DNA of 64,000 nucleotides from Scenedesmus sp. PABB004 (Eukaryota): positions 992,001-1,056,000 of the forward strand of contig CM026548.1 in assembly GCA_014905635.1 (NCBI GenBank). Reading direction: 5' to 3'. Shown piece by piece: positions 6,001 through 21,990 of this stretch. The notes below the pieces were generated by a model. It was given only the letters and a program-made list of their open reading frames with translations, searched no databases and was not told where the DNA came from. A program made the position numbers and the translations under genes. Numbering within the stretch: position 1 is the first letter of the stretch; each line of letters opens with the position of its first letter.

Positions 6001-7557
6001 CCAGCGCCCCGTTGACCCCCCGCGGCGCTGGCCGCAGGTTTTTGGGCTGCACCCCAACGCTGCGATCACGCGGGACCGGCAGGAGGCCGACCAGCTGCTG
6101 GGCGGCCTGCTCGCCAGCCAGGGCGGCGTCGGCGGCGGCGGCGGCGGCGGCGGCGCCGCCGGCGCCGGCGCGGCGTCGGCGGGGCGCGACGCGCTGCTGC
6201 TCGCGCTCGCGGCGGAGCTGCGCTGCAAGCTGCGGGCGCCGTTTGACGTCGAGGCGGCGCGCTGCAGGCGCGCGCGCGGCCGCCGCGGGGCGCGCGCGGC
6301 GCAGGCCCTGGGTCCGTCCGGCGCGCGCCCAGCCGCCGTCTCCCTTCTCCATCACTCGCCCGCCCCCGCCCCCGCCCGCCGCGCCCCGGCGTCCCCGCAG
6401 GTTCCCCGTTGACTACGCGCAGTGCCTGAACAGCGTGCTGGTGCAGGAGCTGGTCCGCTTCAACCGCCTGCTCTCCACGGTCCACGCGAGCCTGTCGGAC
6501 CTGGGCGCGGCGCTGCGGGGCGAGGCGCTCATGTCGGAGCAGCTCGAGCGCGTCGCGGCGGCGATGTACGACAATCGGTGCGCCGCCGCCGCGGGGACTC
6601 GCCGCCGGCGGCTGGGGCGCGGCGGCCGCCGGCCTGGCCGCACGCGGCGCCGGCCAGCGCGCGCCCTGAGCCCGCCGCCGACCTCTCCGCCTGCCGCCTG
6701 GCCCCGCGTGCGCGCAGGGTGCCAGCGGCGTGGCTGGCGGTGAGCTACCCGAGCCTGAAGCCGCTCGGCGCGTACGTGTCCGACCTGGGGGAGCGCCTCG
6801 CGATGCTGGACGCGTGGCTGTGCGCGGGCGCGCCGCCGGCCGTGTTCTGGCTCTCCGGCTTCTTCTTCACCCACGCCTTCCTCACAGGTGGGCCTGCAGG
6901 GCAGGAGGGAGGGGAGGCCCCCCGCGCGAGGCCGCCGCCGCCGCCGGCGCGCGGTCGAGCCCGCGCGCGTGCAGCCCCGGCGGCGCCGCCTCACGCCGCG
7001 GGTTCCCTCGGGCGCCCCCCCCCCCTGCCCCGCGCCGCGGCAGGCGTGAAGCAGAACTATGCGCGCGCGCGCCGCGTGCCGATCGACACGCTCGCGTGGG
7101 AGTTTGCGCCCCTGCCGGCGGGGCCGCAGCCGCCGTCGCCGCCGCCCGACGGCGGCGCGGCCGTGAGCGGGCTGTTCCTGGAGGGCGCGCGCTGGGACGA
7201 GGCCGCGGGGCGCCTCGCGGAGAGCGAGCCCAAGGTGCGCGCAGCCGCGCCGCGGGGCGCCCGCCGCCGCGCTGCGCCGAGCCCAGCCCCGCCGCACCAC
7301 CGCCGCCGCCGCGTGCTGTGCAGGTGCTGTTCTCGCCCGCGCCGCTGCTGCTGCTGCAGCCGCGCGAGGCGGCGGCGCTCGCGCCGCCGGCGCCGGGCGT
7401 TGACATTGCCGTGTTCCGCACCGCTGAGCGCCGGGGCGTGCTGGCAACGACCGGGCACTCCACCAACTTCGTCTTCCACATCCGCCTGCCCAGCGACGCG
7501 CCGCCGGAGCACTGGGTGCGCCGCGGCGTGGCGGCGCTGCTGTCGCTCGCAGAGTGA
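1..7557 (+). CDS. Axonemal dynein heavy chain, 3' portion (stalk, AAA5, AAA6, C-terminal domain); 5' end outside window; 25 introns traced
   Basis: Spliced exons give dynein motifs: [158 protein letters not shown]. Stop TGA 7555-7557. Confidence 0.96.
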
Positions 7558-7712: not shown

Positions 7713-10497
7713 TCACAAGAGTGGCACCGGCGCGTCGATCGCCGAACGCTGGAAGTCGTTGCGCAGCTGCCCGCACGCCGCCGCCGCCTCGAGGCCGCGC
7801 GTCGACCGCACGCTGACGGCCAGCCCCGCCGCCTCGAGCGCCGCCTGCGCGGCGCGGCGCCACGCGGCGCGTGGCGTGTCAGGCGCCCGGCGCCGCGGCG
7901 GCCGCCGTCGCCCTGCGCGCGCGCGCGCGCACGCGTGCGCGTGCCGCCGCGCCGCCGCCGCACCTGGAAGGCCTTCACGCGGCCCGGCCCGGGGCGCTCG
8001 TAGCTGCTGTCCTTCACCGGGTTCCAGGGAATGAGGTTGACGTGGCTCGCGAGGTCGTGTGCGCGCAGGAGCTTGGCGAGCGCGCGCGCCTGCGGGGCGC
8101 CGGCGCGGCGGCGGCGCGCCGGCGCCCGCGCCGCGTCGGCGCCGGCGCGCGGCGCGGGCGGCGCGGGCGGCGGGCGCGGGCGGGCCCCGGGCGGGGGGCG
8201 GGGGCTCACGTGGTCGTCGGTGTCGTTGGTGCCGCCCATGAGCGTGTACTCAAACGTCACGCGCCGCCCTGTCGACTTGAAGTACGCCGCGCAGTCGGCC
8301 ATGAGCGCCTGGGGCCGGCGCGTGAGTGGGCGGGCGGTCGGGCGGGTGATCGGGCGGCGCCGCGGGGCCGCGGGCCGGCGGCGCGAGCGCGGCGCGCGCA
8401 GCAGAGCCCCGCGCGCCGGGGCTCGCGCGCGCGGCGGCGGCCAGCGGCGCGGCGGCGCGGCGGCTGGTTGGCTCGCCGGCAGACCTCGATCGGGTAGGTG
8501 CGGGCCGAGGGGATGAGCGCCTCGCGCAGCGCCTGGCTGGGCGCGTGGATCGACACCGCGAGCGTCGCGGTCAGCCGGGCCTCGGCGAGCCGCGGCAGCG
8601 CGTTGGGCACGCCGACGGTGGAGATGGTGATGGCGCGCCCCGACAGCCCGAGCTGGTCCTGCAGCACGCGCACCGCCGCCACGACGCCCGGGAGGTTGAG
8701 CATCGGCTCGCCCTGCCCCATGAACACTGGCGGAGCGGGGCGGGCGGGCGGCCGTGACGCGCGCGGTGCCGCGGCACGGCGCACGGCGGCCTCGGAGCGC
8801 GCACGCGCGGCGCCGCGCGCGCGCACCGACGTTGCTGACGCGCTGGCCAAAGACCTCGCCGATGGTCAGCACCTGGTCCACGATCTCGTGGGGTTTGAGG
8901 TTGCGCGCAAAGCCGCCCTTGCCGGTCGCGCAAAAGTTGCAGCGCATCGGGCAGCCGACCTGCCCCCCGCCGCCGGCGCAGCCACGAGGTGCGCGCACAC
9001 GTGAGCGCGGCCGCCGCGCCCGCCGCGCCGCGTGCAGGCCCCCCAGCCGCCGCCGCGGCGCGCGCCCGCCGGCGGCGCCACGCCCGCCGCACCTGCGACG
9101 ACACGCAGACGGTGAGCCGGCGGCGGGCGCCGTCCTCCACCGGAATGCCCACGGTCTCAATGAGCCGCCCGTCCTCCACCTGCATCGGCGGTGGGCGGCA
9201 GCAGCGGCAGCGGGGCTCAGGCGCGGCGCTGCAAGGCGGGGGGCCGGCGCGGCGCGGCAGCCACGCGCGGCGGCGCGGCGTCGACCTGCAGCAGCAGCTT
9301 GCGCGTGCCGTCGGGGCTGCTGACGCTGTGGTGCACCGCGCTGCGCCCGGTGCGCACGCCGAGCGCGGCGAGCTGGTCCCGGAAGGCCTCGGGCAGGCCG
9401 CGGATCTCGGCGACGCTGCGGCGCGCGTGATGGCGCGCGTGTGGGCGGCGGCGGGGCAGGGCCCGGCGTGAGCGGCGCCTGCCTGCGGCGCGCGGGCGCG
9501 GGCGGCGCGCCGCCGCCGCCGCGGGGCGCCGCCGTCACCTGCGCGCGCCCTTGAGCACGCCGTCCGCGAGTTGCTGCCCCCGGAACGCCGGCTGCCCGAG
9601 CTGCTGCGCGAGCGCGCCCAGCTCCGCGGGCGTCTTGCCCAGCAGCACGTAGCCGGCCGCGTCGACGCGCTGCGGCGCGGCGGCCGCGGCCGAGTCGGCC
9701 TGCGCCGCGACGACCAGCCCCGCGTCGACCGCGCTCCAGGGGCCGTCCCGCACGGCGGGGTCGCGCGGCACAAAGGTCGGGTCCGACACGCCCGCGAGCG
9801 CCAGCGGCGCCGGCGGCGCGCGCTCCGCCGGCGCGGCCGCGTCGCCGGCGGGCGCCGGCGGCGGGCGCTTGAGCAGCACGTCCCGCGCGCGTGGCGCCGC
9901 CGGCGGCGCCGGCCTGCTGCTGGCGCCGCCGCGGCTGGCGCCGCCGCGGCTGGCGCTGCCGCTGCTGCTGGCGCCGCCGCGGCTGGCGCCGCCGCGGCTG
10001 GCGCTGCCGCTGCTGCTGGCGCCGCCGCGGCCGCCGCTGCTGCCCCAGCGACCGCCGCCGCCTTCGGGGCCGCCCCCGCGCCCGCCGCTGCCGCTGCCGC
10101 CGCGCCCGCCGCTGCTGCTGCCGCCGCGGCCGCCGCTGCTGCCCCAGCGGCCGCCGCCGCGATCGTCGGGGCCGCCGCCGCGGCCGCCGCTGCTGCCGCC
10201 GCCGCCGTACCGCTGCCTGCTACCGCCACCGCTCAGCCCAGCGTCCGTCGGCGCGCCGGCCACGCGCTGCGGCCGGCCGCCAGGTGGCGGCGGCGGCCGC
10301 GCGCCGCCGCTGCTGCCGCCGCCGGGCTTGCCGGCGGCCGCCACGTGCAGCGCCGACCGGCCCAGCATGCTGCGGGCTGTGTGCAACTCCCAGGACAGCG
10401 CGGTCGGGCGCCTGCGCAGCACGACGGTCGCGGCGGTCGCTGCTGCGGTCGGCGGCTGTGCGGCGTGCAGTGCGCGCAGTAGGAGGCCACGCCACAT
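7713..10497 (-). CDS. rlmN: RlmN-like dual-specificity RNA methyltransferase (radical SAM), probably organelle-targeted, with Gly/Arg/Ser-rich N-terminal extension; multi-exon
   Basis: [37 protein letters not shown] (CxxxCxxC), [43 protein letters not shown] 10497 ([11 protein letters not shown], presequence-like). Stop TGA 7713-7715. Confidence 0.92.
9900..10220 (-). repeat. Degenerate coding repeats in the RlmN N-terminal extension ([11 protein letters not shown] / GGRGG)
   Basis: Repeated ctggcgccgccgcgg / gctgctgctg blocks on the + strand; RGG/SRGG-rich peptide on the - strand. Confidence 0.7.
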
Positions 10498-12224: not shown

Positions 12225-14417
12225 GCGTCAAGGCGCTGCAGGCGCAGCTCGTGGCGGCGCGCGCGGAGCTCGCCGAGCAGCTGACGGCGGCGCGGCAGGC
12301 GGCGGCCGACGCGGCGGCGGCGGCCGACGCGGAGCGCGCGGCGCTCGCCGAGCAGCTGACGGCGGCGCGGCAGCAGGCGGCCGACGCGGCGGCGGCGGCC
12401 GACGCGGAGCGCGCGGCGCTCGCCGAGCAGCTGGAGGTGGCCCAGGTGCGCGCCGCCGCCGCCGCGCCGCCGGTTCGATGCACGGCGCGCGCCCGCGCCC
12501 GCGGCCGACGCGCGGCGGTGGCTCACGCAAGCGCCCGCGCCCGCGCCGTCCCTTTGCAGGACGCGCGCGCGCGCGCTAGCGAGCAGCTGCAGGAGCAGCA
12601 GCAGACCGCGGCGGCCGACGCGCAGCGCCAGGCGGCGGCCTCGGCGGCCGCGGCAGCGACGGCGGCGGCGCAGCTCGAGGCGGCGCGCGCGGCGCTCGCC
12701 GAGCAGCTGACGGCGGCGCGGCAGGCGGCGGCCGACGCGGCGGCGGCGGCCGACGCGGAGCGCGCGGCGCTCGCCGAGCAGCTGACGGCGGCGCGGCAGC
12801 AGGCGGCCGACGCGGCGGCGGCGGCCGACGCGGAGCGCGCGGAGCTCGCCGAGCAGCTGACGGCGGCGCGGCAGGCGGCGGCCGACGCGGCGGCGGCGGC
12901 CGACGCGGAGCGCGCGGCGCTCGCCGAGCAGCTGGAGGTGGCCCAGGTGCGCGCCGCCGCCGCCGCGCTGCCGGTTCGATGCACGGCGCGCGCCCGCGCC
13001 CGCGGCCGACGCGCGGCGGTGGCTCACGCAAGCGCCCGCGCCCGCGCCGTCCCTTTGCAGGACGCGCGCGCGCGCGCTAGCGAGCAGCTGCAGGAGCAGC
13101 AGCAGACCGCGGCGGCCGACGCGCAGCGCCAGGCGGCGGCCTCGGCGGCCGCGGCAGCGACGGCGGTGGCGCAGCTCGAGGCGGCGGCGCGCGCGGCGCT
13201 CGCCGAGCAGCTGACGGCGGCGCTGCAGGCGGCGGCCGACGCGGAGCGCGCGGCGCTCGCCGAGCAGCTGACGGCGGCGCGGCAGGCGGCGGCCGACGCG
13301 GCGGCGGCGGCCGACGCGGAGCGCGCGGCGCTCGCCGAGCAGCTGGAGGTGGCCCAGGTGCGCGCCGCCGCCGCCGCGCCGCCGGTTCGATGCACGGCGC
13401 GCGCCCGCGCCCGCGGCCGACGCGCGGCGGTGGCTCACGCAAGCGCCCGCGCCCGCGCCGTCCCTTTGCAGGACGCGCGCGCGCGCGCTAGCGAGCAGCT
13501 GCAGGAGCAGCAGCAGACCGCGGCGGCCGACGCGCAGCGCCAGGCGGCGGCCTCGGCGGCCGCGGCAGCGACGGCGGCGGCGCAGCTCGAGGCGGCGGCG
13601 CGCGCGGCGCTCGCCGAGCAGCTGACGGCGGCGCGGCAGGCGGCGGCCGACGCGGCGGCGGCGGCCGACGCGGAGCGCGCGGTCGAGTGGCATGCGGGCG
13701 CGATTGAGCTGCTGGAGCAGCACGACGCCGCGCTGGAGCAGCTGCGCGGGCAGCACGCCGCCGCGCTCGAGCAGCGCGACGCCGCGCGCGCGAGCGCGGC
13801 CACGCTGCGGCAGGAGGCGGCCGCGGCGAGCGCCGCGCACGAGGCGGAGCTGGAGGCGCTGCGCGGGCAGCACGCCGCCGCGCTCGAGCAGCTCGAGCAG
13901 CTCGAGGCCGCGCGCGCCGCGCTCGAGCAGGGCGCGGCCGCGGCGGCCGCCGCGTCGGAGCCCGAGGCGGCCGTGCCGAGCAGCGGGGCGCCCAAGCGTC
14001 CCCTCAGCCCGGCCGCGGCCACCGCCACCGCTGCCACCGCCGCCGCCGCCGCTGCCACCGCGCCAAAGCGCCAGCACTTGGCGAGCCCGGCGGCGGGCGG
14101 CGGCGAGCAGGCGGGCGTGCCCAGCGGCGGCGCGGTGGCACCGCCCGGCCGCGGCGCCGAGGGCAACGGCGAGGCGCGCGAGCGCGAGGCGGCGCAGGGC
14201 GCGGCCGCCGCGGGCGCCGCGGCCGCGGCCGAGCCGGGGAGGACGCAGCCGCGGCGAGCGCCGCGCACACGGCGGCGCTCGCTGCTGCGCAGGAGCAGGA
14301 CGGCGGGGCGCCCAAGCGCGCCCACAGCCCGGCCTCGTCCGCCGGCGGGCAGAAGCGCCGGCACGGCGCGGCGGGCGGCGAGCAGGCGGGCGCGCCCGGC
14401 GGCGGCGTGGCGGCGCT

Positions 14418-14467
<50 letters not shown>

Positions 14468-14800
14468 GCCGCCGCGCCGCTGGGCGGGCCCGTGGCCGGC
14501 GCGCCGGGCGGCGGCGAGCAGGCGGGCGCGCCCGGCGGCGGCGGCGCGGAGAGCGACGACGGCGAGGCCAGCGACGGCGACGGCGACGACGACGGCCGCC
14601 GCTGCAGCCGGCGCCGCCGCCAGTGCCGCCGCCGTGCGCGCGGTCGGCGGCAGCGCCGCCTAGAGTGCCGCCGCCTAGAGTGCCGCCTAGAGTGCCGCCG
14701 CCGTGCGCGGTCGAGCTGCTGCTCGGTGCCAAGGCCATCCTGGGCCGCGCGGAGCTTACGGCCACCCTCCGCATGCTCAAAACCAACAAGCCCAAGCTGA
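12225..14800 (+). CDS. Ala/Glu/Gln-rich coiled-coil repeat protein region; no ATG found at the 5' end; may be the upstream part of the FHA gene
   Basis: Repeated ALAEQLTAARQAAADAAAAADAER units and three near-identical GT-AG introns, then low-complexity sequence with PKR-x-x-SP motifs and poly-Pro. Frame switches near 14235 and 14460. Confidence 0.55.
12260..13682 (+). repeat. Tandem array of ~72-nt coding units plus three copies of a 114-nt intron (12446-12559, 12947-13060, 13358-13471)
   Basis: Intron gtgcgcgccgccgcc...ggctcacgc...cctttgcag occurs three times (one substitution in copy 2), each flanked by the same exon ends (gcccag| and |gacgcg). Confidence 0.95.
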
Positions 14801-14820
14801 CCATAAAGCGCAAGTCCCAG

Positions 14821-16515
14821 CAAAACCCGGCCCCGCCCCGCCAAAACTCGCGCTCCCGCGGCGCCGCCGGGCCAAAACCCGGCCCCGCCCCGCCAAAACT
14901 CGCGCTCCCGCGGCGCCGCCGGGCCAGAACCCGGCGCCGCCGGCCAAAACCCGGCCCCGCCCCGCCAAAACTCGCGCTCCCGCGGCGCCGCCGGGCCAAA
15001 ACTCGCGCTCCCGCGGCGCCGCCGGGCCAAAACCCGGCGCCGCCGGGCCAAAACCCGGCCCCGCCGGGCCAAAACTCGCGCTCCCGCGGCGCCGCCGGGC
15101 CAAAACCCGGCGCCGCCGGGCCAAAACCCGGCCCCGCCGGGCCAAAACTCGCGCTCCCCGCGGCGCCGCCGGGCCAAAACCCGGCCCCGCCGGGCCAAAA
15201 CTCGCGCTCCCGCAGCGCCGCCGGGCCAAAACCCGGCGCCGCCGGGCCAAAACCCGGCCCCGCCGGGCCAAAACTCGCGCTCCCGCGGCGCCGCCGGGCC
15301 AAAACCCGGCCCCGCCGGGCCAAAACCCGGCCCCGCCGGGCCAAAACCCGGCGCCGCCGGGCCAAAACCCGGCCCCGCCGGGCCAAAACTCGCGCTCCCG
15401 CGGCGCCGCCGGGCCAAAACCCGGCCCCGCCGGGCCAAAACTCGCGCTCCCGCAGCGCCGCCGGGCCAAAACCCGGCGCCGCCGGGCCAAAACCCGGCCC
15501 CGCCGGGCCAAAACTCGCGCTCCCGCGGCGCCGCCGGGCCAAAACCCGGCCCCGCCGGGCCAAAACCCGGCCCCGCCGGGCCAAAACCCGGCGCCGCCGG
15601 GCCAAAACCCGGCCCCGCCGGGCCAAAACTCGCGCTCCCGCGGCGCCGCCGGGCCAAAACCCGGCGCCGCCGGGCCAAAACCCGGCCCCGCCGGGCCAAA
15701 ACTCGCGCTCCCGCGGCGGCGCCGGGCCAAAACCCGGCCCCGCCGGGCCAAAACTCGCGCTCCCGCAGCGCCGCCGGGCCAAAACCCGGCGCCGCCGGGC
15801 CAAAACCCGGCCCCGCCGGGCCAAAACTCGCGCTCCCGCGGCGCCGCCGGGGCCAAAACCCGGCCCCGCCGGGCCAAAACCCGGCCCCGCCGGGCCAAAA
15901 CCCGGCGCCGCCGGGCCAAAACCCGGCCCCGCCGGGCCAAAACTCGCGCTCCCGCGGCGCCGCCGGGCCAAAACCCGGCGCCGCCGGGCCAAAACCCGGC
16001 CCCGCCGGGCCAAAACTCGCGCTCCCGCGGCGCCGCCGGGCCAAAACCCGGCCCCGCCGGGCCAAAACCCGGCCCCGCCCCGCCAAAACTCGCGCTCCCG
16101 CGGCGCCGCCGGGCCAAAACCCGGCGCCGCCGGGCCAAAACCCGGCCCCGCCGGGCCAAAACTCGCGCTCCCGCGGCGCCGCCGGGCCAAAACCCGGCCC
16201 CGCCGGGCCAAAACTCGCGCTCCCGCGGCGCCGCCGGGCCAAAACCCGGCGCCGCCGGGCCAAAACCCGGCCCCGCCCCGCCAAAACTCGCGCTCCCGCG
16301 GCGCCGCCGGGCCAAAACCCGGCCCCGCCGGGCCAAAACTCGCGCTCCCGCGGCGCCGCCGGGCCAAAACCCGGCCCCGCCGGGCCAAAACCCGGCCCCG
16401 CCGGGCCAAAATTCGCGCTCCCGCGGCGCCGCCGGGCCAAAACCCGGCCCCGCCGGGCCAAAACTCGCGCTCCCGCGGCGCCGCCGGGCCAATACCCGGC
16501 GCCGCCGGTCCAAAC
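14821..16515. repeat. Composite minisatellite of 21-nt (ccaaaacccggc[c/g]ccgccggg) and 31-nt (ccaaaactcgcgctcccgcggcgccgccggg) units, with a perfect 240-nt higher-order duplication
   Basis: 24 long units counted by hand; 44 short units follow from the remaining length. 15181-15420 is identical to 15421-15660. Confidence 0.97.
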
Positions 16516-16980
16516 GGTCGGGGCGCACGCCAAGCAGCTGGCGCTGTGCGGCGGCGGGCCCGGTGCGCGGCGTTCGCGCGACAGCAGCGGCGGCGCGCCG
16601 GGCGCCGCCCCGGCGCCGAGCGCGGCCGCCGGGCCCGGCGGGCGCGCGCCCCGGGCCGCGCGCCTGCCCCCGCCCGCCGGGACGCGCACGCTGAGCCCGC
16701 TGTGCGCGCTGCCACGCTGCGCACGCTGAGCCCGCTGCGCGCGCTGCCGGCGCGGCTGACATGCACGCACGCGCGCACACGCGTCACCGCGCGCACAGAC
16801 CTGCTGCTGTGGACGCACGCACCGGTGCTGCTGGGCCGCCTGGTGAAGGAGGGCGAGGGGTACAAGTACCCCAACAGCTGGAACAGCCTCAGCAGCAGGC
16901 ACTGCACGCTCGCGTTTGAGGGCGACGGCGCCGAGGTGCGCGCCGCGGGGGGCTGAGCGCCGCGCTGCTCCGCCGCGTCG

Positions 16981-17011
<31 letters not shown>

Positions 17012-17789
17012 GGACCCACCCACCGCGCCACGCCGCGCCGCGCCGCGCAGGCGTGCTGGGTCGTGCGCGACAGCTCCACCAACGGCACCTTCATCAACGG
17101 CGCAAAGGTCGGCAAGGGCGCCGCCGCGCCGCTGCGCCCGGGCGACCGCCTCGGCCTCTCCTCCATCCACCCGCCGCCGGGGCAGCCCGCGACGAGCTTC
17201 GTCAACACCGTCGAGTATGTGCTGGAATTCGACGCCGACACGGAGCCGCCCGCCCGCCCCGGCGCCGCGGCCGCGCCACCGCCGCCGGCCGCGGCCAAGC
17301 GCCGCCAGGAGCAGCAGGGCTCGCCCGCCGACGGCGCCGCCGGCGCGACGGGCGGCGGCGGCGCCGCCGCCGGGGGCGCGTCGGGCGGCGCCAAGCGCGC
17401 GCGCGCGTCGTCGCACGACGACGCGGGCGGCGCTGAGATGAAGCAGCTCGTGGCGGCGAACAAGGTGCGCGGTGCTGTTTGTGTGTGTGGTGGGGGGGGG
17501 GTGTGGCATGGGGGCATGGCGCAGAGCGGGGGGCGGCGACGGCGCCAGGCGCGCCTGGGCGCGCCTGGCAAGGGAGGGAGCGCGCGGCGCCGCAGTGCCG
17601 CCCCCGCCGCGGCCGTGCTCACGTGCCACGCGCGCCTCCTTGGCGCAGGAGCTGCGCGAGCGCGCCGCCAAGCACGTGGCGGACATCGAGGCCCTGGAGG
17701 CCCGTCTCGCTGCTGCGGACGCGGCGGCGCACGACGCGGCCGCTGCGGAGCGCGAGGCGGCGCTGCAGGCGAGCGTGGAGGAGCTGCAG
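16490..17789 (+). CDS. FHA-domain protein followed by coiled coil; true start and stop uncertain
   Basis: Exons 16799-16935, 17051-17464 and 17650-17789 give VLLGR...SLSSRHCTL.../WVVRDSSTNGTFING...LRPGDRL, the GR, SxxH and NGT FHA signature, then a helical Ala/Glu-rich segment. Confidence 0.82.
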
Positions 17790-18035
17790 GTGGGTGCTCG
17801 CGCGACTGTGGCGTGTGTGTGTGTGTGGGGGGGGGGGGCACACTCTGGGGCGTCAGCGGGCGCGCGGCGCGCCGCCGGACCGCCACCACTTGCAGGCCTC
17901 AGCAGCGGCACGCCGCCCACGCGCGCTCGGCCGCCACCCGCGCAGCAGCAGCGGCAGCAGCACCGCCGCGCGCCGCCGCCCGCTCCGTTGCGGCCGCTCG
18001 CCGGCATGCCGCGCTGATCGGCCTGCGGCACCGCC

Positions 18036-18728
18036 ATGCCTCGCTCGCCCAGCCCCGGCGGGCGCGAGCGGAAGCGGGGAGGCTACGAGGACGAGCGCGA
18101 GCGCGACCGCAAGCGGCCGCGCGAGGACGACGCGCGGCACCACGGTCGCGATGAGCGGGGCTTCGACCGGTACGATCGGCACGACCGCCACGTCGGGGAC
18201 GGCCGCGGCGGCCGGGAGGAGCGCTATGCGCGCGACGGCCGGGGCCCCCACCCCGACAGCAGGCCGCGGGAGCGCGACGAGCGCCGGCGGGAGCGCAGCA
18301 GGTCGCGGGATCGCGACTACAGGCGCAGGTGCGCGCGCCGGCAGGCAGCGGCGGCGCTGCGGCGCGCCGCAAAGCGCTCAGCGCTCGGCGCCGCTGCTGC
18401 TGCCGCGCGCTCGCCGGCCCACACGCGCCGCTGCGCAGGTCGCGCAGCAGGGAGCGTGAGCGGCGGCGGGACGAGAGCGCCGAGCGGCGGCGCGGCCCGC
18501 CGCCGGGCGCGCGGCGCGAGGACGAGGAGGAGGAGGAGGGTGCGCTTCCGCAGCAGCAGCTGCCGGGCCCGCCCGGCGGCGCCGCGGCCAACGGCAAGCC
18601 CAAGGCGGAGCCGCTGTCGCTGGAGGAGCTGCTGCGGCGCAAGAAGGAGCAGCAGGAGCAGGAGTCCAAGGTGCGCGCGGGTTTGGCTTTGGGGGGAGGG
18701 GGGCCAGCCGGCAGCAGCACGCACGCAT

Positions 18729-18771
<43 letters not shown>

Positions 18772-20500
18772 CGGGCGGTCAGAGAGGTGGCCCCGGTGAG
18801 GCCCGCGGCGCCGCCTGATACCTCTGCCCCACAGCAGCGGCGGGGCGGCACGTTTTCAGGCGCGGCCGCGAGCCGTCGGCCGCGCCCCCAGCACGCCGCC
18901 CCACACCCCTTCCCTCCCCCTCCCGCGCACTCCCCTCTGGCACGCACGCACGCACGCACGCGCGAGCGCGGCGCCGTCGCTGCGAAACTCCCGTCCTCAG
19001 CGCCGCGGCGTGCCCGCCCCGCCCCGCCCCGCCCCGCCCCCGCCCTGCCCCGCCCCCGCCCCGCCCGGCCCGGCGCGCAGCCCAAGTTTCTGACCAAGGC
19101 GGAGCGCGAGGCCCTCGCGCTGGAGCGGCGGCGCGCCGAGGCGGCGGGCACGCGCGCGGCGCAGGACGAGCTCCGCCAGCAGCAGCAGCAGCAGCAGCTC
19201 GCGGTGCGAATGGGCGGCGCCGCTTGCGCGTGCGGCGCCCGTGCGGCGCCGCGCCCGCCCGGCGCGCGGGCTCTCGCCTCACCCGCGTCCGCGTCCGCCG
19301 CGCCGCCGCGCGCAGGACGAGGCGCGGCGCGCCGAGGCGGCGCGGCGCGAAGCGGCGCGCATGCGGGGCAAGGACGAGCGGGAGCGCGAGAAGGAGCTGG
19401 AGCTCATCCGCAAGCAGTACCTGGTGCGACGCGGCGCTGTGGCGCTGGCTCTGTGGCTGTGCGGCTGCTCACAGCCAGCTGTGTGTGTGGCCGTGGTGTG
19501 TGTGTGGCTGTGTGTGGGTGTGTCAGCGGAGCACCGCAGGCGGCCGGCGCGCCGCCCGCGCCGCTCACGCGCCGCCGCCGCGCGCCCCCCTCAACGCCCC
19601 GCCACCGCGCGCAGGGCGACGACGCGCCGACTAAGAAGCGTGCGATGAAGGCGAGTGAGAAGTTTCGGTTCAACTTTGACTGGGACGCCAAGGAGGACAC
19701 GAGCAAGGACCTCAACCCCCTCTACAACAACCTCCACCGTGAGACGCGGCGCCGCTGCGCAACGGCGCGCGGGCGGCGGCGCCGGCGCGGGGTGGGGGGG
19801 GGGGGAGTGAGGCGGCGCGGGCCGCCCGCTGCGCGCGCCCGACGCCGCGCCCACACGTGTGCCCACGCACGGGCCGCACGCCCACGCCCACGCTTTCACG
19901 CGCGCCCATCGCAGAGGCCAACCTGCTGTACGGGCGCGGCATGCTCGCGGGCATCGACCGGCGGGAGCAGAAGAAGGCGGCGGCTGCGGTCGAGGCGGAC
20001 GCGCTGCGCAAGGCGCGCGGCGCGGCGGGCATCGCCGAGACGAGCGACATGCGCGCGGCGGCGCGCGCGCGCGCGAGGCGCGTGCGGACAAGTACGATGC
20101 CTTTGACATGAGCGTGAGTGCCGCGCGCGCTGGGCCAGCCCGGCTGGGGGGCCCAGGGCTTCGCAGAGTTCGGGTTCAACTCAGCGCTCAAATCCTGCCA
20201 CGCGCACGCCGTGGCGCGCGCGCCGCGCGGAGGGGTGGGCCGCTGGCGGGCGCCGGTCGGCGGCGCCCGCGCCGGCGCCCCTCACCCGCCGCGCCCCGCC
20301 GCCGCGCGCGCCCCGCCGCCGGCGCGTCTGCTGCTGCTGCGGCCAGGTTGAGAAGCACTGGAGCGAGAAGCCGCTGAGCAAGATGACCGAGCGCGACTGG
20401 CGCATCTTCCGCGAGGACTTCAACATCAGCTACAAGGGCAACACCTCGACGCTGCCGCTGCGCGCGTGGGACGAGGCGGACCTGCCAGACATCATACGCA

Positions 20501-20568
<68 letters not shown>

Positions 20569-21990
20569 TGCGTGTGTGGGTGGGTGCGTGGGTGCGTGTG
20601 CAGGCGAGTGAGTAAGCAAGCGTGTGCAGGCAAGTGAGTGAGTGTGCGTGTGGAGGCGTGCGTGAGTGTGTGTGTGTGTGCACACGCGCGCCCGCCGCCG
20701 GGCGACGATGACCCGAAATCGCTTGATCTTATCTTTGAATGCCGCTGCCGCCGCGCGCGCGCCGCGCCGGGCCCGCCGCCGCCCCGGCGCGCGGCGGGGC
20801 CCCGGCGCGCGCGGCGCGCGCGGCAGGCGGCGCTGCCTGTTGAGACGTGAGGTCCTGAGCCCCCTCGGCCGCGGCGCGGACGCTGCTGTTGCCGTGTCGC
20901 GCGCGCGCGCGTCCCGCCTGCGCGCGCTTCTCTCCCCGCGCCGGCCGCGTCTCGCGCTGCCGGCCCGCTGCCCCGACGCCTGCCCTCCCGCCTCCCCCCT
21001 CCCCTGCTCTCCCGTGGCCCCTCTCCGGGGCCGCCGCAGGGCATCACCGCGGTCGGCTACGCCAAGCCCAGCCCCATCCAGATGGCCAGCATCCCCCTCG
21101 GCATGCGCCAGGTGCGCGCGGCGCGCGCCCCATGCCTCGCGCCGCGGGCCGCCCCGCATCCGCTCGCCTCTCCCTGCGCAACCCCGCGGCCGGAACCTCC
21201 CCACCCTGCTGGACCCCACCTTAAGCCCTTAACCCTAAACCCCGCCCTGAACCCATCCCCAAACCCCGCGCAGCTCGACGTCATCGGCGTCGCGGAGACG
21301 GGGTCGGGCAAGACGGCCGCGTTTGTCATCCCCATGCTCTCCTACATCCTCCGCCAGCCGCCCATGACCGAGGAAAAGTACGCGGACGGGCCCTACGCCG
21401 TGGTGAGGCGGCGCCCCCGCGTGCCCCTGCGCTGTGCTCGTGCCGCCGCTCGGGCGTCCGCCGCTTCGCGCATGCTGCGCACGGCGGCGGCGGCGCGCGG
21501 GCGGGCGTTGACAGGGGCGAGCCGCCGCCGCGCCGCGGCTCTGCTGCGCAGGTGCTCGCGCCGACGCGCGAGCTGGCGCAGCAGATTGAGGAGGAGACTG
21601 AGAAGCTGGCCAAGTTCACGGGCTTCAGGTGGGTGTGTTTCTTTGGGGGGGGGGGGGGGGGCGCTGCAGGACAGGCAGGGCCAGAGGGAGGGTCGGGGGC
21701 CGGAGCGCGAGCGAGGGCCGGGGCACGAGGCAGGGAGCATCAGCACGTCGGCCGGCCGACGCGCGCGCCGCCGCGGGGCCGCGCGCGCCGCCGCGGGCCC
21801 GCGCGCCCGACCCGCGCCGCCGCCGCGGCCGCCCGCCCCGCCCGCGCAGGGTGACGTCGGTCGTGGGCGGGCAGTCGATCGAGGAGCAGGGCAGCGTGCT
21901 GCGCCGGGGGTGCGAGATCGTGATCGCCACGCCCGGGCGCCTGCTGGACTGCATCGAGCGCCACTACTGCGTGCTCAACCAGGTGAGGGT

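Follow-up and report, generated by a model that had tools for sequence, protein, structure and literature searches.

The window (the whole 64,000-nt stretch of DNA that was analysed; G+C content 79.6%) holds a gene encoding a protein with an N-terminal FHA domain, and at the 5' end of this gene stands a long minisatellite composed of two kinds of unit. Its features, in order, are:

14773-14819, + strand: ATG and 16-codon Lys-rich leader (frame 1), the candidate start of the FHA gene (translation, coding score)
14820-16509, + strand: minisatellite, 1690 nt, 69 head-to-tail units
14924-14943, + strand: irregular 20-nt short unit (-1 nt, GGG to GG; also an A-to-G change)
15142-15173, + strand: irregular 32-nt long unit (+1 C within a C run)
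15195-15674, + strand: two copies of a 240-nt higher-order block, pattern LgcLccgcLc (L, long unit), three long units each
15821-15852, + strand: irregular 32-nt long unit (+1 G within a G run)
16487-16562, + strand: last degenerate unit and conserved end of exon 1 (frame 2), region of the first FHA strand (BLASTP, MAFFT alignment)
16563-16798, + strand: intron 1, 236 nt, GTGCGC...CACAG (orthologues read straight through the junction; splice-site hexamers)
16799-16935, + strand: exon 2, N-terminal half of the FHA domain, with L-L-G-R and S-S-R-H (orthologue identity)
16936-17050, + strand: intron 2, 115 nt (splice sites)
17051-17464, + strand: exon 3, C-terminal half of the FHA domain and an Ala/Gly-rich linker with a K-R-A-R motif (Pfam, library matches)
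17649-17789, + strand: putative exon 4, a short coiled-coil-like segment (splice sites, open phase-0 join)
17946-18017, + strand: putative exon 5 with the stop TGA at 18015-18017 (splice-site exon model)

Short units number 45, of which 44 measure 21 nt and the one at 14924 measures 20 nt; among the 24 long units, 22 have 31 nt, and those at 15142 and 15821 have 32 nt. The C-rich strand of the array is the + strand; the mixed units follow each other head to tail and fall within the size range of about 10-100 nt that characterises coding minisatellites. Allowing three mismatches or fewer, the 21-mer has 45 matches against 0.02 expected from shuffles and the 31-mer 23 against 0, all of them on the + strand and inside the array, and within the window the units are confined to it. 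These shuffle-tested matches bear out the repeat described in a first-pass annotation of this DNA, together with its 24 long units and its net irregularity of +1 nt, while its 44 short units become 45 when both edge units are counted. The 240-nt higher-order duplication with exactly three long units, also proposed there, is real and is evident as a 269-nt exact run at offset 240. Homogeneity is seen in both kinds of unit, since 18 of the 23 matched long units equal the consensus and 25 of the 45 short ones are exact. The blocks cL (52 nt), gcL (73 nt) and ccgcL (115 nt) each have a length of 1 mod 3, and among the 12 longest internal self-matches of the array the offset is 0 mod 3 in one, 1 mod 3 in six and 2 mod 3 in five; there is no bias to multiples of three in the array's duplication history. 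Exact scans of viral contigs for the long unit, and of prokaryotic genome contigs for the unit-plus-junction pattern, gave 0 matches each; the source organism is absent from both collections, and neither scan is informative on copy number in its genome.

The FHA gene and the 3' edge of the array

The identity of the downstream gene rests on exons 2 and 3. Exon 3 matches Pfam PF00498 with 29.1 bits (cut-off 20.7; E 1.4e-6) over profile positions 33-66 of 67, and has 49 library matches, the best being P0001 at 45% identity; P0001, P0008 and P0025 also match Pfam FHA. Pfam alone gave no score for exon 2 (a 54-residue piece), and a search with this exon among proteins of similar length returned no candidate, but it carries G-R and S-x-x-H, which we take to be FHA-domain motifs, and is 70-80% identical to the orthologue fragments P0050, P0051 and P0052, as expected of the N-terminal half of the domain. 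Against four orthologues, 28-32 of 42 residues of exon 2 are identical, compared with 30-32 of 42 among the orthologues themselves. Neither exon contains a stop or a frameshift, although stops are rare at the G+C content of the window and this is weak evidence of intactness. The one metagenome locus that matched the orthologue alignment was discarded as a false match, being a bacterial contig with an unrelated gene.

At its 3' edge the array runs into conserved coding sequence. The frame-2 peptide of 16487-16561 is identical to residues 9-23 of P0053 at 12 of 15 positions (BLASTP, E 2e-7), exon 1 ends on the first base of a split Asp codon, and the orthologues continue unbroken over the junction between the donor at 16563 and the exon at 16799, as the first-pass annotation had proposed; the donor hexamer (ccg|GTGCGC) is common to three other nearby donors. 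In the orthologue fragments the FHA domain begins within about 10 residues of the N-terminus, and the Met of P0050, P0051, P0053 and the more distant P0025 lies 2-8 residues ahead of the conserved block. A MAFFT alignment sets the orthologues' initiator Met opposite a Pro codon just before the last array unit, where the window has no ATG, and the orthologue N-termini at the edge of the array read Met-Gly-x-Tyr. The alignment of these N-termini to the frame-2 peptide right after the last unit shows, by sequence comparison, that the array's 3' end belongs to the first exon of the FHA gene. The suggestion that the array lies within a coding exon is supported by this alignment, and the array probably grew from an exonic 21-mer.

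The array as a whole has no splice signals by which it could be removed: it contains no GT and its AG dinucleotides occur only at 14926, 15214, 15454 and 15767, with none between 15767 and 16532, which leaves its last 740 nt free of AG. An intron holding the whole array was also considered and rejected, as the AGs downstream of the array all lie past the conserved V-G-A-H-A block. The weaker donor after 16516 that had been put forward earlier is in phase as assembled, but its use would delete the conserved block V-G-A-H-A-K-Q-L-A-L-C-G-G-G-P and with it a conserved strand, and it was likewise rejected. Partial splicing would run from a weak donor after 14813 (AA|GTCCCA) to a CGCAG acceptor after 15768, bringing ATG 14773 into frame and retaining about 265 array codons. 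The phases of this model fit as assembled, and the G-to-A variant of the long unit that it uses creates the local acceptor consensus CGCAG; the donor, however, has only GT in common with the local consensus GTGCGC, and one fitting site among four AG sites is the rate expected by chance, so that we regard this model as very improbable.

Reading frame across the array and coding signal of its 5' flank

The array was first noted as free of stop codons on the + strand. This observation stands, as stop trinucleotides are absent from all six frames, yet its value as evidence of coding does not, because the window has a G+C content of 79.6% and every frame is open. Stop-to-stop frames of 640-1487 codons span the array on both strands, and open stretches of at least 556 codons hold 15-21% of all codon positions in the window. 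We have therefore dropped the open frame as an argument, since it amounts to no more than chance, and the same holds for genomes near 80% G+C in general, where an open frame is no evidence of coding.

A more specific signal is found in the 5' flank. The leader from ATG 14773 enters the first array unit directly in the phase Q-N-P-A-P-P, which is seen in the translation and agrees with the earlier claim, and 14773-14820 receives a position-specific coding score of +23.2 bits in frame 1 as opposed to -7.8 and +0.9 bits in the other frames. Over 14710-14820, frame 1 scores +29.7 bits, compared with a maximum of 10.2 in intron windows (n = 143) and a mean of 19.5 in exon windows (n = 156). The part upstream of the ATG (14710-14772) contributes a weak +6.5 bits; a coding-like signal thus precedes ATG 14773, which is a weak indication that 14773 need not be the true start, and no earlier ATG exists in the leader's frame back to 13708. 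Further upstream, 14599-14709 is coding-like in no frame. A single gene uniting the upstream coiled-coil gene with the FHA gene is disfavoured on this ground and by the orthologues, which begin with Met at the FHA N-terminus. The sequence context of ATG 14773 is unremarkable.

The two flanks of the array are related in phase but are not in register as assembled. From ATG 14773 to the codon at 16508 there are 1735 nt (1 mod 3), so that the register of the ATG is off by +1 relative to the FHA exons; if the supported donor is used, a ribosome starting there would meet a stop at codon 637 in exon 2, before yielding an FHA domain. The last unit reads G-Q-Y-P-A-P-P-V-Q-T-V in frame 2, unlike the leader, which is in frame 1. 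A coding minisatellite keeps its reading frame, whereas here there is a +1 offset and 31 nt is not a multiple of three; the preservation of frame claimed for the array and its duplication is thus not visible, given the register of the ATG and offsets that are mostly not 0 mod 3. On the other hand, ideal units would give 45 x 21 + 24 x 31 = 1689 nt, which is divisible by 3, and both flanks read the unit in the same phase, so that one unit would join them in frame (chance 1 in 3) and a collapsed array leaves them joined in frame. In frame 2, a Met codon is absent from 14807 until past the FHA domain (the first M is residue 761 of the frame-2 model). Since the array has no ATG and is not removable by splicing, ATG 14773 would be the only AUG able to serve the FHA domain.

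The three irregular units are all single-base changes in runs of G or C, and changes of this type are typical long-read miscalls; the irregular units look like miscalls. As a possible further sign of indel errors in the assembly we considered a frameshift in a Prp28/DDX23 exon at 19917-20108. An alternative in-phase GTGCGG donor inside that exon makes this frameshift unnecessary, and the exon thus does not serve as an independent gauge of the assembly's indel error rate. A PDB search with the exon gave no Prp28 match. In genomes near 80% G+C, the gene model hinges on single-base accuracy within GC-rich arrays.

A proposed translated arm and the alternatives

We tentatively favour, at somewhat less than an even chance, the scenario that an exonic expansion is translated as a three-phase Pro/Arg-rich arm and that the sequenced copy either carries a one-base miscall or is a null allele. 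A young, homogenised minisatellite would have had its origin in 21 nt of coding sequence in exon 1 of a conserved gene with an N-terminal FHA domain, at the extreme N-terminus, where the orthologues have Met-Gly-x-Tyr. Translation would start at ATG 14773 and ribosomes would read the whole 1.69 kb, each 31-nt unit moving the frame by one and leading through the phases P-P-G-Q-N-P-A, G-P-K-P-G-P-A and R-R-A-K-T-R-P. The product would be a disordered arm of about 560 residues ahead of the FHA domain, with a predicted composition, as assembled, of 24% Pro, 19% Arg, 18% Ala, 11% Gly and 9% Lys, and the 1-nt offset would reflect either a homopolymer miscall in the assembly or a frameshifted null allele. 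Direct observations are the place of the array's 3' end in the exon, the splice junction, the absence of an ATG where the orthologues start, the coding-like character of the 5' flank and the +1 offset; we infer transcription from upstream of 14773, translation of the array and a true sequence that is in frame. The undecayed state of the FHA exons, with exon 2 diverged from its orthologues within about the same range as they are from each other, speaks for this scenario. Counter to it run the +1 offset, the weak coding-like signal ahead of the ATG and the lack of visible frame constraint, as 24 frame-shifting units would not readily accumulate in an array selected for frame; in addition, the leader peptide has no detectable homologue (a search with the 5' flank peptide of 14692-14820 among longer proteins returned 18 candidates, none at E up to 1).

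The missing start codon can also be taken at face value. According to this alternative, the 31-nt units and single-base indels broke the N-terminal frame, making the gene in this genome, or this allele, a very recent pseudogene or null and the array neutral. Such a loss would fit the assembled sequence, in which the FHA domain has no in-frame AUG and the orthologous Met codon is missing, as well as duplication offsets that do not favour multiples of three and unit homogeneity that points to recent turnover. However, the conservation of exon 2 matches that seen between the orthologues, the Pfam FHA match is intact with exons 2-3 undisrupted (a weak point at this G+C content), and the orthologue family has been retained in several other organisms. 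We consider disablement of the gene unlikely, although clearly within consideration. Should the array not be translated, the locus would show, in a datable way, how satellite expansion can cost a conserved gene its start codon. Should it be translated, all three phases of a single DNA repeat would have supplied a conserved signalling module with an arm of ~560 residues; this would be an unusually clear instance of disordered protein sequence born de novo from a minisatellite, in a gene whose expression depends on repeat length modulo three.

The array could also lie outside the translated part of the gene, as a satellite in its promoter or untranslated leader. Transcription would then begin within the array or a little upstream of it; alternatively, the array would form a long AUG-free 5' leader. 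The FHA protein would have a near-cognate start just after it, such as the ACG at 16514-16516. The array has no AUG in any frame, which means that scanning ribosomes would not be trapped; this ACG lies in frame two codons before the conserved V-G, is the only near-cognate codon in frame 2 ahead of the block, and coincides in position with the orthologous start. However, it has C at -3, its product would start too late to include the 8 residues found ahead of V-G in the orthologues, and non-AUG starts are uncommon. The frame-specific coding signal of the 5' flank and the common unit phase of both flanks would in addition be left unexplained, and we judge this model improbable.

Comparison with known repeat systems

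In bacterial contingency loci a hypermutable repeat separates the start codon from the functional part of the protein, and repeat length modulo 3 decides expression. The tract described here has a similar position between candidate start and FHA domain, and changes in its length shift the frame of the downstream FHA open reading frame, as is required of a contingency locus. As a selected switch, gain or loss of blocks bearing 31-nt units would turn the FHA protein on and off, with selection favouring the variability: the population would always hold 'on' alleles, encoding the ~560-residue arm and the FHA domain, and 'off' alleles, of which the sequenced copy would be one. The hypermutable tract lies between the only AUG and the domain, the 52-, 73- and 115-nt blocks each shift the frame by +1, and the assembled allele is in the 'off' register. 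Nevertheless, neutral decay or a miscall would account for these facts too, any one frame match arises by chance in 1 of 3 cases, and an intracellular phosphopeptide-binding module is, to our knowledge, not among the kinds of product known to benefit from on/off variation. Bacterial loci, moreover, have units of 1-7 nt, whereas this is a eukaryotic nuclear gene with introns and units of 21-31 nt in higher-order blocks, its predicted product is an intracellular FHA protein and it is represented by a single assembled copy. A selected switch, and with it a eukaryotic nuclear contingency locus, is in our view distinctly improbable.

Intragenic tandem repeats, known from yeast adhesin genes and from human coding sequences, resemble the array in standing head to tail within an open reading frame, with unequal exchange changing protein length. 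In coding repeats, unit lengths divisible by three are over-represented (O'Dushlaine et al., 2005; PMC1273636). Unlike these usual cases, the mixed 21/31-nt array runs through all three phases. A close parallel is the coding VNTR of human MUC1 with its frameshift alleles (ADTKD-MUC1), a very GC-rich minisatellite in a coding exon, where a single-base change in one unit shifts the rest of the array into a different repetitive peptide and where the VNTR region resists standard sequencing (PMC5843638, PMC12458345). The MUC1 unit measures 60 nt, a multiple of three, and its frameshift is a rare pathogenic event; here, 24 of the 69 units are frame-shifting in themselves, and the array comes directly after the candidate start codon and before the only folded domain.

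Among proteins, the closest counterparts are green-algal proteins with an N-terminal FHA domain and a coiled coil. The domain is near the N-terminus in the orthologue fragments, and in P0001 it is followed by a basic linker and then a coiled coil; unlike the orthologues, the window gene has about 580 extra codons before the domain. Assignment to the SLMAP/STRIPAK type of FHA protein is not supported, as Pfam gives FHA only in P0001 and the window exons, with neither CC1_STRIPAK (PF27557) nor any other family found in them at E up to 0.01-1; SLMAP clusters of the Atlas reach scores of 0.84-0.88, which we treat as a lead only. The nearest Atlas clusters consist of FHA-only proteins, one of them mostly from Chlorophyta (score 0.90, 185 shared features).

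Structure of the array and its open frames

By Tandem Repeats Finder and our own parse, the minisatellite, which probably lies in exon 1 of the FHA gene, is a single array of 1690 nt (14820-16509, plus strand) made of 69 units. Among the 45 short units, 44 have 21 nt and the one at 14924 has 20 nt; among the 24 long units, 22 have 31 nt and those at 15142 and 15821 have 32 nt. A long unit is a short unit with 10 additional bases. Each of the three irregular units carries a single-base change in a G or C run, and together these changes come to +1 nt. Matches to the 21-mer (45 observed, 0.02 expected) and to the 31-mer (23 observed, 0 expected) far exceed expectation for the 64-kb window, and no copy of either was found outside the array or on the minus strand within it. 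The first-pass annotation had described the sequence of the array correctly: its 24 long units stand, its 44 short units become 45 when both edge units are counted, and its 240-nt higher-order duplication is borne out by an exact run of 269 nt at offset 240, the block (LgcLccgcLc) holding three long units.

The same annotation had placed the array inside the FHA coding exon partly because the frame lacks stops, an argument that proved void, whereas orthology backs both that placement and the splice (see below). No stop trinucleotide occurs in the array in any of the six frames, frames that run 640 to 1487 codons from stop to stop span it on both strands, and 15-21% of codon positions across the window fall in stretches that stay open for 556 codons or more; the stop-free frame is uninformative. 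The window has a G+C content of 79.6% (75-83% along its whole length) and contains no N.

The FHA gene downstream of the array

Exon 3 (17051-17464) matches the Pfam FHA profile over positions 33-66 of 67 (29.1 bits, cut-off 20.7), and phmmer with this exon against the full library gave 49 hits, the best being a 945-residue protein whose FHA domain lies close to the N-terminus. Exon 2 (16801-16935), when searched against longer proteins, yielded three hits in 13 candidates, at 70-80% identity, and the orthologue fragment P0053 was added by cluster look-up. The fragments read M-G-x-Y-x-L-x-A-V-G-E-H-A-K-Q-L..., then a short G/D-rich turn, and continue uninterrupted into D-L-L-L-W...L-G-R, the exon 2 sequence of the window. 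Frame 2, the frame of the FHA N-terminus, reads G-Q-Y-P-A-P-P-V-Q-T-V-G-A-H-A-K-Q-L-A-L-C-G-G-G-P directly after the last unit (16487-16561), and 12 of 15 residues are identical to residues 9-23 of P0053 (pairwise E 2e-7), from which we conclude that this segment is coding in frame 2. Given this match and the unbroken run of the orthologues into exon 2, the junction from donor 16563 to acceptor 16799, as first annotated, is right; the donor (ccg followed by GTGCGC) shares its hexamer with donors 16936, 17465 and 18329. The weaker donor after 16516, in phase as assembled and also put forward there (as 16517), was rejected because it would delete the conserved block.

In a MAFFT alignment the initiator Met common to P0050, P0051 and P0053, where the more distant orthologue P0025 also begins, lies opposite the Pro codon immediately 5' of the last array unit, and the orthologue G-x-Y lies opposite G-Q-Y of that unit. 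The array thus ends precisely where the protein began ancestrally. Frame 2, although open 3' of 14807, has its first Met at residue 761 of the spliced frame-2 model, behind the FHA domain, so that an AUG-initiated FHA protein would need an ATG 5' of the array and translation through the entire array. A leader that lacks AUG, followed by initiation at the near-cognate codon ACG 16514, close to the ancestral start, would avoid this passage and is considered improbable.

Neither ATG nor GT occurs in the array, AG is found only at 14926, 15214, 15454 and 15767, and the next AG (16532) lies past the conserved V-G-A-H-A codons; for these reasons no intron can take out the array without loss of conserved coding sequence, and at least its last 740 nt must share one exon with the FHA N-terminus unless transcription starts there. 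In the long units at 15214, 15454 and 15767 a G-to-A change creates CGCAG, the local splice-acceptor consensus, and the copy at 15767 would share the phase of ATG 14773 if a very weak donor, after 14813, were used. Partial splicing from that poor donor to the acceptor after 15768, although in phase as assembled, is highly improbable.

The 5' flank, origin and register of the array

ATG 14773 has no earlier ATG in frame back to 13708 and reads M-L-K-T-N-K-P-K-L-T-I-K-R-K-S-Q before the first unit, which it enters in the Q-N-P-A-P-P phase as first annotated. The flank looks coding-like in this frame (frame 1) by a position-specific base composition score built on 11 exon segments, one of them in the wrong frame, and tested against 13 intron segments; a homologue search with the flank peptide detected none.

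Coding scores of the 5' flank and of reference windows
14710-14820, frame 1: +29.7 bits
14710-14820, each remaining frame: -19.6 and -18.6 bits
48 nt 3' of ATG 14773: +23.2 bits
63 nt 5' of ATG 14773: +6.5 bits
14599-14709: below zero in every frame
143 intron windows of equal length: mean -11.2, maximum 10.2
156 exon windows: mean 19.5

A small repeat at 14655-14702 (GCCGCCTAGAGT x 3.5), which sets three TAG codons (14661, 14676, 14688) in a single frame 82-110 nt 5' of ATG 14773, has on its two sides a copy of a GC-rich 18-nt motif that ends in GTGCGCG, and may mark the end of the upstream gene.

Tandem duplication adds copies without loss of flanks. The unit phase is the same on both sides (Q-N-P-A-P-P 5', Q-Y-P-A-P-P 3'), a match with a chance probability of 1 in 3 when taken alone, so an array cut to one unit would give an unbroken ORF from ATG 14773 into the FHA domain. 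From this phase match, together with a 3' flank that is coding, a 5' flank that looks coding and the absence of another ATG, we judge the array to have expanded within coding exon 1. It is a minisatellite, coding or 5'-exonic, whose units rotate the frame. Coding tandem repeats are described as enriched for unit lengths divisible by three, and frameshifting repeat polymorphisms exist (PMC1273636). The nearest well-described parallel in the sources cited here is the MUC1 VNTR (60 nt, GC-rich), in which within-unit frameshift variants yield a new repetitive peptide and are missed by standard sequencing (PMC5843638, PMC12458345).

With ideal unit lengths the array would measure 1689 nt, divisible by three, and the assembled array measures 1690 nt. 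As assembled, ATG 14773 to codon 16508 is 1735 nt (1 mod 3), and translation through donor 16563 terminates at codon 637, inside exon 2 and without the FHA domain. Our leading, if tentative, reading is an exonic expansion that has to be translated into an arm of three phases (24% Pro, 19% Arg, 18% Ala, 11% Gly and 9% Lys as assembled), the +1 being a homopolymer miscall or a null allele. That the expansion has already disabled the FHA gene, as the early termination would have it, is somewhat unlikely; exon 2 bears no sign of decay, with 28-32 of 42 identities to four orthologues vs 30-32 of 42 among the orthologues. The offsets of the 12 longest internal self-matches (one 0 mod 3, six 1 mod 3 and five 2 mod 3) show no frame constraint on the duplication history. 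A selected on/off switch, the other proposal of the first-pass annotation, would be slightly less probable even than a near-cognate start. Comparison may also be made with the repeats of yeast adhesins and with bacterial contingency loci.

The neighbouring helicase gene and other features

Introns in the window are GT-AG, and a Prp28/DDX23 helicase gene, with DEAD and Helicase_C pieces, lies just downstream (E 1.8e-13 to 4.8e-13 against Prp28/DDX23 chains); on both grounds the region is eukaryotic nuclear. The predicted FHA stop (TGA 18015-18017), which depends on the exon model with its inferred FHA 3' exons, the helicase identity being tested, lies only 18 nt ahead of the helicase ATG at 18036 on the same strand (18015-18038). 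This putative spacing is reminiscent of bicistronic transcripts, which have been reported from green algae (PMC7896298, PMC11291117).

For helicase exon 19917-20110 the donor could be either GTGCGG, within the exon, or GTGAGT, further downstream, and the exon is in frame with the next only through the former, unless there is a one-base assembly error in the (GC)n run at about 20060-20075. An assembly frameshift here, considered as a sign of indel error, vanishes with the alternative in-phase donor. FHA intron 2 contains C14 followed by (CA)n (16975-17012), and a helicase intron (20503-20600) a (GT)n run roughly 100 nt long; long simple runs of this kind are where assembly errors of one base would be expected.

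Upstream, a plus-strand ORF (12254-13655) carries coding-type tandem repeats with units of 75 nt and 411 nt (the latter 2.1 copies, 97% matches), which keep the frame and encode Ala/Gln/Glu-rich coiled-coil-like sequence; a Pfam search with this ORF gave no match. A minus-strand frame at 8600-9000 has a Cys-x3-Cys-x2-Cys pattern of the kind typical of RlmN/Cfr-type radical-SAM enzymes, to which it may belong, and a plus-strand frame at 6700-7300 has a hydrophobic block that may correspond to the C-terminal region of a dynein heavy chain.
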